Shown: piece by piece, positions 6,057 to 6,481 of the stretch
How positions within the stretch are numbered: position 1 is the stretch's first letter
How the letters are laid out: the number at the start of each line of letters is the position of its first letter
From: a virus
Lineage: Duplodnaviria > Heunggongvirae > Uroviricota > Caudoviricetes
Length of the DNA: 6,567 nt
IMG/VR virus record: IMGVR_UViG_2671180444_000011
Reading direction: 5' to 3' (one strand)
Notes under the pieces: generated by a model
What the model was told of the DNA's origin: nothing
What the model saw: the letters and a program-made list of their open reading frames with translations, nothing else
Databases searched by the model: none
Position numbers and translations under genes: made by a program

Positions 6057-6064
6057 CCATTACA

Positions 6065-6093
6065 AAGCCCATTTACGGGTGGGCTTGATAATG
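6065..6093 (+). repeat. Hairpin plus GATAATG motif, copy 1 (AAGCCCA-TTTACGGG-TGGGCTT then GATAATG)
   Basis: 7-bp perfect stem at 6065-6071 / 6080-6086, 8 nt after the stop of the 85-aa ORF; GATAATG at 6087-6093. Confidence 0.5.
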
Positions 6094-6280
6094 AAACCGG
6101 AATTTATTCTGGGCCACCAGTTAACGGCAGTACCACGAAACAACCCAAGCCAGTAAGTGGGGAAATAACACCGGCAGCCACTGAAAGATGAACCTCCTGC
6201 CTTATGGCAAAAAAGATTCTTTGTGGTGGCGGACTGATGGAAAGACATCCCAATTTCAGCCAAACATTGAAGGAGTTGTT

Positions 6281-6352
6281 ATGTCAGCAGAAGGTTTCAA
6301 TAACCCATCAAAATTCCGGGATGAGTGGGATAGCAGCGTAAAGAGTAAGTGA
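6281..6352 (+). CDS. Possible 23-codon small ORF (MSAEGFNNPSKFRDEWDSSVKSK) with near-consensus ribosome-binding site
   Basis: AGGAG at 6271-6275, 5-nt spacer, ATG at 6281, TGA at 6350-6352. No homology recognised; could be a gene remnant. Confidence 0.25.
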   Translation: MSAEGFNNPSKFRDEWDSSVKSK

Positions 6353-6362
6353 TGCCATCACA

Positions 6363-6395
6363 AAAGCCATTCCCTACAGAGTGGCTTTGATAATG
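6363..6395 (+). repeat. Hairpin plus GATAATG motif, copy 2 (AAAGCCA-12 nt-TGGCTTT then GATAATG)
   Basis: 7-bp perfect stem at 6363-6369 / 6382-6388, 10 nt after the stop of the 23-codon ORF; GATAATG at 6389-6395; same orientation as copy 1, 302 bp downstream. Confidence 0.5.
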
Positions 6396-6481
6396 GCTTA
6401 TACCCTACACGGGATAACTTAACTGATATCCCTTTTAAAGGATAAAGGTATTCAAGCCTGACACATCATGCGCTGTATCGT

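Follow-up and report, generated by a model that had tools for sequence, protein, structure and literature searches.

What is the function of two hairpins that each stand directly behind a stop codon in a prophage late operon? The question is raised by a 6,567-nucleotide (nt) stretch of viral DNA, IMG/VR record IMGVR_UViG_2671180444_000011, which we refer to as the window and which represents the late region of a decayed lambdoid prophage. The region under study comprises 425 nt (6057-6481), reaching from an hkbL-like gene to the left end of the insertion sequence (IS) element IS2 at 6482. It holds the two stem-loops, here called hairpin 1 and hairpin 2, and between them a non-coding block homologous to the phage P22 small RNA P22G and an open reading frame (ORF) of 23 codons. 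The original prediction for this locus, made from the letters alone, had offered RNA stability elements, protein-binding sites or reused GATAAT-type -10 elements as explanations. Among these options a role in RNA stability or processing turned out to be the best reading. Judging from comparative sequence analysis, the hairpins probably direct RNase III processing of the late transcript and stabilise it, and they serve secondarily as joints between gene cassettes.

All sequence features that had been listed for 6057-6481 are present. The hairpins share a 15-mer (GTGGGCTTGATAATG / GTGGCTTTGATAATG) at 6079-6093 and 6381-6395, 302 nt apart, and lie just 3' of stop codons as described: the TAG at 6054-6056, which ends the hkbL-like gene, directly abuts hairpin 1, and the TGA at 6350-6352 ends 2 nt before hairpin 2. 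The stem sequences that had been named are found, but the actual stems are longer than claimed, with inverted-repeat arms at 6058-6071/6080-6093 for hairpin 1 and 6354-6372/6379-6397 for hairpin 2. Both are built from a lower stem of 5-6 base pairs (bp), a 2x2 internal loop CA/GA, an upper stem of 10 bp and a small terminal loop. In hairpin 1 (6058-6093, plus strand), the lower stem is formed by 6058-6062/6089-6093, the internal loop by CA at 6063-6064 and GA at 6087-6088, and the upper stem by 6065-6073/6078-6086. In hairpin 2 (6354-6397, plus strand), the lower stem 6354-6358/6393-6397, or 6355-6360/6391-6396 in the register of the family described below, is followed by an internal loop that includes CA/GA and by the upper stem 6363-6372/6379-6388. 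The minimum free energies are -17 kcal/mol (z -3.5) for hairpin 1 and -21.1 kcal/mol (z -4.7) for hairpin 2, with z taken against shuffled controls. Because the stems extend further than described, the GATAATG that had been taken for a separate module is the 3' arm of the lower stem; the shared TTGATAATG forms this arm, and its partner arm reads CATTAcaA or CATCAcaA. Nor does the ATG within GATAATG behave as a start codon, as it opens only ORFs of 3-48 codons that are frameshifted between relatives. Neither hairpin is followed by a T-tract and neither is an intrinsic terminator, as had been stated: on the plus strand they lack the combination of G+C-rich stem and U-tract, and the terminator scan was silent at both. 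A search of Rfam release 15 (cmscan, E<=1) returned nothing in 5900-6567, the only matches in the window being ALIL and one that is Trp_leader-like.

The view of a duplicated module holds in so far as there are two copies in the same orientation, but the duplication is not just local, since both copies belong to a widespread family, of which we collected 42 distinct variants and 238 copies from lambdoid phages. The 42 variants align in register, with pairing in 94.9% of cells, and 9 of 13 pairs carry compensatory changes on both sides. None of 500 shuffles matched the observed covariation score, and slid controls pair only in 26-52%. RNAalifold gave the same fold independently and added three more pairs to the upper stem, bringing it to 10 bp. 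The consensus is a lower stem N-Y-A-U-U-R / Y-A-A-U-G-N, the CA/GA 2x2 loop, the 10 bp upper stem and a loop of 3-6 nt, with the CA/GA loop invariant (42/42 variants) immediately below the upper stem. The folding and covariation analysis across homologues that had been proposed as a check was thereby carried out, and both hairpins are structured and covary beyond chance. A covariance model built from the family (lambdoid model R1, a name distinct from that of the T7 site R1) scores hairpin 1 at 62.1 bits (E 2.8e-11) and hairpin 2 at 55.8 bits. At the position of hairpin 2, HK97, HK620, P22 and L carry a hairpin, TTATTGcaGAGGCCA...TGGTCTCgaCAATGA, of different sequence and the same shape.

Single-sequence folding cannot tell which strand is the folded one, as both fold, whereas a comparison of G.U pairs with A.C mismatches can. 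The family alignment contains 103 G.U cells versus 19 A.C mismatches, and therefore the folded molecule is the sense strand of the late operon. It could be RNA or, less plausibly, the DNA strand of the same sense. When 173 loci (557 kb) were scanned for the hairpin shape, it turned up on the late-gene strand only, and every strict motif match as well as all 238 catalogued copies are in late-gene orientation.

RNase III "punctuation" of polycistronic messages is textbook knowledge for phage T7, and it is the T7 early sites (R0.3, R0.5, R1, R1.1 and R1.3) that the lambdoid hairpins resemble. Because the T7 records examined do not annotate RNase III sites, these were placed at coordinates that we take to be those of Dunn and Studier 1983. 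When the five T7 early intergenic hairpins were folded, their upper stems proved nearly identical to the lambdoid ones. T7 R1.1 reads AAGGUCAUUC-GCAA-GAGUGGCCUU and then UAU|GAU; hairpin 2 reads AAAGCCAUUC-CCUACA-GAGUGGCUUU and then GAUAAUG; the HK97 copy reads GAGGCCAUUC-AAU-GAGUGGUCUC; and CAUCUGCGGGUGG is common to T7 R1 and a variant of hairpin 1. In both sets the hairpins stand between cistrons of a long polycistronic phage message, with a 10 bp upper stem of the form ..GGYCAUUC / GAGUGGYC.. that includes the UA/UG distal box, an internal loop at the 11th position followed by a short lower stem, and a conserved GAU 3' of the upper stem. In contrast to the T7 sites, the lambdoid lower stem has a conserved sequence of its own (YAUUR / YAAUG), and the element lies in the Q-antiterminated late operon of temperate phages, transcribed by the host RNA polymerase, where cleavage is a prediction. 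For T7, RNase III is known to cut the early precursor at five sites, with R1.1 being cut once (PMC4858673).

Models made from either set detect the other. Run unfiltered on T7 nt 800-6600, lambdoid model R1 returned R1.1, R1 and R0.5 as its first three matches and also listed R0.3 and R1.3; the remaining 33 kb of T7 gave two weak matches, the better of which abuts R18.5. Conversely, model R2, which was built from the five T7 early sites only, was searched against the window together with the HK97 and Sf6 genomes (85 kb, both strands). Its top two matches, both end-to-end, were the hairpin 2 copy of Sf6 (E 5e-4) and hairpin 2 of the window (6351-6404, E 0.0023), and it also listed the HK97 copy and both hairpin 1 copies, that of the window as a local match at 6065-6091.

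Compared position by position, the published determinants of E. coli RNase III are largely present in the hairpin family. Pertzev and Nicholson (PMC1540722) describe the target as a helix of 11 bp in which the distal box is UA/UG, a U-A and then a U.G pair beside the pair that closes the loop, and the proximal box is GC, AU/UA, AU, AU/UA, the last of these (or another pair that is not G-C) adjoining the scissile bond. At the distal box, pair (22,31) is UA in 23/42 variants and CG in 18/42, and pair (21,32) is U.G in 36/42; the exact UA/UG is found in hairpin 2 and in the copies of HK97 and P22, and hairpin 1 has CG/UG as does T7 R1. The proximal box is GC in 29/42, AU in 36/42 and AU in 27/42 variants, and hairpin 1 fits it fully with G-C, A-U, A-U and then an A.G mismatch. 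A G-C pair beside the scissile bond blocks catalysis (PMC1540722), and at the 11th position, which adjoins the predicted scissile bond, every variant has an A.G mismatch, as against U.C in natural R1.1. The 10 bp upper stem with a non-Watson-Crick 11th position has the same build as in R1.1. Internal loops confine RNase III to one strand, and the 3' hairpin that remains protects against 3' exonucleases (PMC1540722). At the predicted cleavage site of the lambdoid hairpins, CA/GA forms an internal loop in 42/42 variants, which may have this effect.

The comparisons show the structure of the hairpins, its conservation, the strand that folds, the positions of the copies, the likeness to T7 sites and the recombinant joints. 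From this we infer that RNase III probably cuts these hairpins, at a predicted position and with likely consequences for RNA stability. The hairpins would act as cis-acting RNA stem-loops on the Q-dependent late transcript, at cistron or cassette borders in the accessory segment between the lysis and packaging genes. As candidate sites of the T7 early type, hairpin 1 of the R1 type and hairpin 2 of the R1.1/R0.5 type, they would carry the distal-box and proximal-box pairs in the upper stem and the scissile bond at the internal loop, with the short lower stem completing about two helical turns. The predicted 3'-side cut is GAU|AAUG, which would fall at 6089|6090 in hairpin 1 and at 6391|6392 in hairpin 2. 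Cleavage would split the late polycistronic RNA into defined pieces, the upstream piece keeping a 3' hairpin that blocks 3' exonucleases. In the window, both cuts together would free an RNA of ~300 nt, consisting of the P22G-like structured leader, the microprotein cistron and hairpin 2 as the protective 3' end; in HK97 and HK620 the freed piece would be ~200 nt and comprise the P22G-like block alone. The flanked segment does accumulate as a small RNA, P22G, in P22 infection, and we count this in favour of the RNase III reading.

Several points weigh against it. The main one is that no RNase III cleavage data were found for any copy of the hairpin. As model R1 finds no copy in the K-12 prophages DLP12 and Qin, the published RNase III maps of K-12 cannot be used here. 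The individual T7 matches have marginal E-values (0.03-9), and what carries the argument is that they fall on known sites; the positions of these were checked only against the folds, the gene layout, with which they agree, and the published description of R1.1 / RNA 6. The T7 late sites R3.8, R4.7, R6.5 and R13 went unmatched by the lambdoid model. In the proximal box, position 1 of the window's hairpin 2 is A-U where G-C is called for, position 3 is G-C in HK97-type copies, and a C-G pair, strongly inhibitory at position 2, occurs there in 4 of the 42 variants. The 2x2 internal loop is symmetric, as opposed to the asymmetric 4/5 loop of T7, and the total helix, with this loop included, amounts to 16-19 bp, under the ~22 bp said to give full contacts (PMC1540722). 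Finally, the reported 3' end of P22G (22,076) lies in the apical loop and not at the predicted cut, although the ends of P22G are imprecise owing to 101-nt reads and an 80% coverage rule (PMC13397905).

If the hairpins were not cut at all, they might still act as passive barriers to 3' exonucleases, stabilising the message in the manner of repetitive extragenic palindromic (REP) elements and protecting upstream cistrons after RNase E cleavage elsewhere. Their position directly past stop codons, the stable stem-loop lacking a U-tract and the accumulation of the flanked RNA as P22G would all be expected of such a barrier. However, a barrier needs a stable stem only, which does not account for the invariance of the CA/GA loop, for a U.G wobble kept almost without exception at one position, for the conservation of the A-U-rich lower stem or for the specific likeness to T7 RNase III sites. 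We consider this explanation unlikely.

The invariant internal loop and the lower-stem sequence suggest base-specific recognition, and this could also be recognition by an RNA-binding protein, of the phage (for example the hkbL-like product) or of the host, or by RNase III itself binding without cutting, so that the hairpin would be an operator controlling translation or stability of the neighbouring cistrons. Cleavage-resistant RNase III binding sites are indeed known (PMC1540722), and the C-terminus of the hkbL-like protein, ERKEERRRKRAEAKAK, resembles arginine-rich RNA-binding motifs. Yet the hairpin is present in phages without hkbL, standing after gene 65 in Sf6 and after rha in ES18 and occurring in mEp043, and it masks no conserved downstream start codon or gene. 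An operator thus seems rather improbable. The narrower idea that the arginine-rich hkbL protein is a dedicated partner was dropped, since hkbL is missing from some of the phages that carry the hairpin.

The RNase III reading places the hairpins at borders between cistrons, and their distribution in intact phages is in keeping with this. Parts of the region occur in 214 phage records, including Salmonella P22-like phages, HK97, HK022, HK620, Sf6, mEp and Stx2 phages, and always between lysis and packaging genes, be the latter of the lambda Nu1-like, the HK97 HNH/terminase or the P22 gene 3 type. When whole genomes of HK97 and Sf6 were searched with model R1, each contained exactly two hairpins, all between Rz and the packaging genes; some IMG/VR prophages have up to four copies. 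The elements are very common in E. coli: the hairpin 2 module is found in 2518/5426 complete genomes (46%) and the P22G-like block in 1120/5426 (21%), both being unannotated among the matches listed. It had been noted that the prediction would fall if the region were the 5' part of an ordinary gene disrupted here, with hairpins not conserved. The intact relatives compared (HK97, HK620, Sf6, HK544 and an E. coli 2547 prophage) show otherwise, as they have conserved hairpins and no disrupted gene.

What flanks the hairpins is far more variable. The surroundings of the 238 copies fall into at least 21 upstream and at least 18 downstream sequence contexts, which are combined reticulately. Many of the upstream contexts have the hairpin beginning 0-2 nt past a stop codon, and others have it past an intrinsic terminator; the edges are sharp, with hkbL, Sf6 gene 65, gene 66, rha and KilA-type genes stopping 0-2 nt before the hairpin. 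The region itself is a mosaic: hairpin 1 with the following ~190 nt ("segment A", 6057-6249) is common among relatives, and 6250-6356 is rare, being found in HK544, Emek and 29 E. coli genomes. In its place Sf6 and mEpX1 have a gp49/66-family gene, and HK97, HK620, P22 and L have nothing. In Stx2 phages hairpin 1 is joined to the downstream flank of hairpin 2 with the intervening DNA deleted, and the sequence common to both hairpins at this joint is TTGATAATG only. The reticulate contexts, the sharp edges and the Stx2 hybrid indicate that the hairpin module is also a recombination joint. The ~40 nt module would allow accessory cassettes to be exchanged or deleted by recombination, because it is directly repeated and is the only conserved island between unrelated flanks.

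The same observations could be explained at the level of DNA alone, by a recombination "boundary sequence" of the kind annotated in lambdoid genomes, a cassette joint or a target of a site-specific system that has no function as RNA. While the module edges, the reticulate combination of contexts and the Stx2 fusion all speak for recombination, the compensatory changes and the G.U:A.C ratio of 103:19 mean selection on a folded single strand of fixed polarity, and exchange driven by homology would favour sequence identity, not covariation. Furthermore, no dedicated recombinase is associated with the element, and none of the bsq features annotated in Sf6 coincides with the hairpins. A purely DNA-level role is thus highly improbable. 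Still less credible is it that GATAAT, for all its closeness to TATAAT, represents -10 promoter elements, or that the hairpins terminate leftward transcription, as might be thought from the stem + UUUUGUG that hairpin 2 reads on the minus strand and from the leftward genes downstream in a close relative, since the scan reports neither kind of site at either hairpin, folding of the minus strand turns many G.U pairs into A.C mismatches, and HK97, HK620, Sf6 and P22 have hairpins but no leftward genes there. The earlier suggestion of a reused -10 element likewise finds no promoter-like site at 6057-6100 or 6350-6400 and no TGn. The nearest -35-like hexamers lie 21-25 nt from GATAAT, where 16-18 bp would be expected, and GATAAT covaries with its pairing partner, becoming GACAAT where CATTA becomes TATTG.

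Two further known systems invite comparison. In phage lambda and HK97, sib is an RNase III site downstream of int that serves retroregulation. Like the present family, it is a lambdoid-phage hairpin, and host RNase III cuts it to control mRNA stability. In contrast to the family, sib is a longer, almost continuous hairpin without sequence likeness to it, and its role is to promote decay of int mRNA upstream, not to mark a cistron boundary; neither lambdoid model R1 nor T7-site model R2 detected it. The promoter-early stem-loop (PeSL) cassettes of T4-type phages consist of a strong early promoter and a terminator stem-loop (PMC2839356, PMC4122927). There, too, short regulatory motifs in direct orientation border small accessory ORFs in a hyperplastic region, and recombination between copies deletes or swaps a cassette, which is seen here as hybrid hairpins and reticulate flanks. 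The lambdoid module differs from PeSL in having RNase III-type determinants in place of promoter and terminator features; both of the latter components were absent in the scan, and the likeness is functional only.

A wider reading, which we put forward tentatively, is that of a portable "punctuation" module: an RNase III site common to the early operons of the T7 group and the late operons of lambdoid phages, by descent or by transfer, that doubles as a recombination joint for cassettes. The cassettes would be the P22G-like small RNA, the gene of the 23-residue protein and the gp49/66 gene, and the module would be the lambdoid counterpart of the T4 PeSL. In that case, RNA processing signals, not promoters, would define mobile gene cassettes. 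The element was not described in the literature that was searched on lambdoid boundary sequences, late-operon stem-loops and RNase III sites in lambdoid late mRNA, and RNase III punctuation of lambda-, HK97- or P22-like late operons is not described in the literature searched. If the RNase III reading is true, it would provide a mechanism by which P22G and the gene of the 23-residue protein are carved from the late transcript and both stabilised, and a testable explanation for mosaic joints at exactly the same 40 nt. The near-identical upper stems of T7 and temperate phages would then be a natural experiment on recognition by E. coli RNase III.

Some observations on hairpins elsewhere may be added. 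Beside R18.5, the sequence GGCCACUACAGAUAGUGGUC (T7 36829-36854; L182 30229-30254) corresponds to the lambdoid lower stem and CA/GA loop without the upper stem. T7 also has two minor E. coli promoters in its annotation, C (3113) and E (36836), whose positions fall on hairpins of RNase III sites. In Sf6 (L176), model R2 also matches 24777-24825 on the minus strand (E 0.03), where a hairpin, AAGGCUGCC..GGUGGCCUUUAUUUUU, lies in the early left operon with the ral-like gene 35 on one side and gene 34 on the other; it could be another RNase III-type site or a terminator. In two further loci, from the IMG/VR prophages L046 (1072-1896) and L087 (518-2259), three or four family hairpins occur in less than 1 kb, each ~50 nt upstream of a Shine-Dalgarno sequence and an ORF. 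One downstream leader (L046 1896-1950) contains a CCUCC...GGAGG stem that sequesters the Shine-Dalgarno sequence.

The block between hairpin 1 and the 23-codon ORF (6111-6249, plus strand) is 92% identical to nt 45-186 of P22G, a plus-strand small RNA of 204 nt that was found by small-RNA sequencing of P22-infected Salmonella, where it accumulates to 374-488 reads per million and where its function is given as unknown (Naaz et al. 2026, PMC13397905). This part of the locus has thus already been reported, though it was left unexplained. The core (~6137-6249) hardly varies between phages and is predicted to form an internal stem-loop, GCCACUGAAAGA...UCUUUGUGGUGGC. Among 57 distinct variants of the block, the 3' 110 nt are almost invariant, yet they contain 1-nt insertions and deletions and have no conserved frame. 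The region had been described as non-coding apart from the tiny ORF, and so it appears: ORFs of 6094-6249 gave no Pfam or PHROG matches on either strand, and the 67-amino acid (aa) ORF on the minus strand and the 54-aa and 45-aa ORFs on the plus strand were rejected as coding on account of the missing family matches and the 1-nt insertions and deletions. Also rejected as coding was the "orf118" of ST64T/L, whose start corresponds to 6204 of the window and with which the hairpin ATG is not in frame. The P22G-like block is a conserved non-coding element. It shares with P22G the strand and the place 3' of a rha / KilA-type gene. The differences are that the boundaries of P22G come from read coverage, not structure, that the P22 copy has no upstream hairpin, and that in the window the microprotein cassette separates the block from its 3' hairpin, whereas in most phages a family hairpin lies within 2 nt 3' of the block. 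A transcriptome paper on BTP1 mentions nine non-coding RNAs without giving positions in its text. The sequence CTTTGTGGTGGC (6219-6230) of the block shows complementarity to each hairpin's 5' arm, 83% to 6056-6067 and 91% to 6354-6364, so that the RNA could switch between alternative pairings.

The 23-codon ORF (6281-6352, plus strand) encodes MSAEGFNNPSKFRDEWDSSVKSK (23 aa) and, as noted before, is preceded by a textbook Shine-Dalgarno sequence, GAAGGAG at 6269-6275, 5 nt before the ATG, so that the whole microprotein gene spans 6269-6352. Searches with tblastn found full-length homologs of 23 codons in the P22-like coliphage APC_JM3.2 (MATQGFDNPSKFRDEWDKQAEGK, 61% identity, E 2e-3), where it sits between the DUF2560 gene and the small terminase gene, and in Proteus phage Brookers (MAVEGSDNPVKFREELDKSIPKK, 52% identity); others are more distant. 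These homologs carry Shine-Dalgarno sequences of their own, and the protein has a conserved core, G-[FS]-[DN]-N-P-x-K-F-R-[DE]-E-[WL]-D. Phage Emek differs from the window at two places within the ORF, in both cases synonymously. Because the protein, its length of 23 codons and the Shine-Dalgarno sequence are conserved in distant phages, the ORF looks like a real gene by comparative criteria. Further downstream, a small weak stem-loop, GGGATA-N10-TATCCC followed by TTTT (6411-6436, plus strand, folding z -1.6), is conserved 3' of hairpin 2-type hairpins in a flank that forms a cluster of 127 instances; in HK97, HK620 and Sf6 the DUF2560 (hkbM) gene comes after it.

The prophage is truncated within this intergenic spacer by the left end of IS2 (6482-6567, plus strand). 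That these last 86 nt are an IS2 end, as had been proposed, is borne out by their repetition in 4678/5426 E. coli genomes and by one inspected copy, immediately downstream of which an "IS3-like element IS2 family transposase" is annotated. The accompanying suggestion that IS2 removed a downstream partner gene found no support, given that the insertion sits in the spacer; the closest intact relative has its next gene 164 nt beyond, on the opposite strand. Upstream of the region, the window contains a lysis cassette of P21-type holin (3936-4151), lysozyme (4151-4648) and Rz (4633-5103), followed by a KilA-N/ORF11CD3 gene (5305-5802) and by the hkbL-like gene (5799-6056, plus strand; phrog_875, PHROG match 1.3e-53), whose 85-aa product is homologous to HK620 hkbL and HK97p61. 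The Arg/Lys-rich C-terminal tail of this product is reminiscent of the RNA-binding motif of lambda N, and its AKAK repeat is expanded in some relatives (L046). Just 5' of the KilA-N gene, 5211-5291 is 100% identical to nt 1-81 of a second P22 small RNA, "P22F" (PMC13397905), and contains a terminator-like stem, AGCCTCGGTGGGCT. The Trp_leader-like Rfam match lies 5' of the holin gene (3727-3818) and is weak (E 0.009, under the gathering score); it is most likely a late-leader terminator (AAACCCGCCGTCGAGCGGGTTTTT) rather than a trp attenuator. The first part of the window (1-3500) is an insertion-sequence graveyard of IS3-family, IS1 and IS21 fragments. It includes IS3-family pieces with rve/HTH_21 ORFs (279-1169, minus strand; 1599-1892, plus strand), the Rfam match to the ALIL frameshift pseudoknot (1366-1482), an IS1 transposase (2135-2635, minus strand) and an IstB/IS21 fragment (2720-3346, minus strand). 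This load, together with the IS2 at 6482, suggests a Shigella-like, IS-rich genome.

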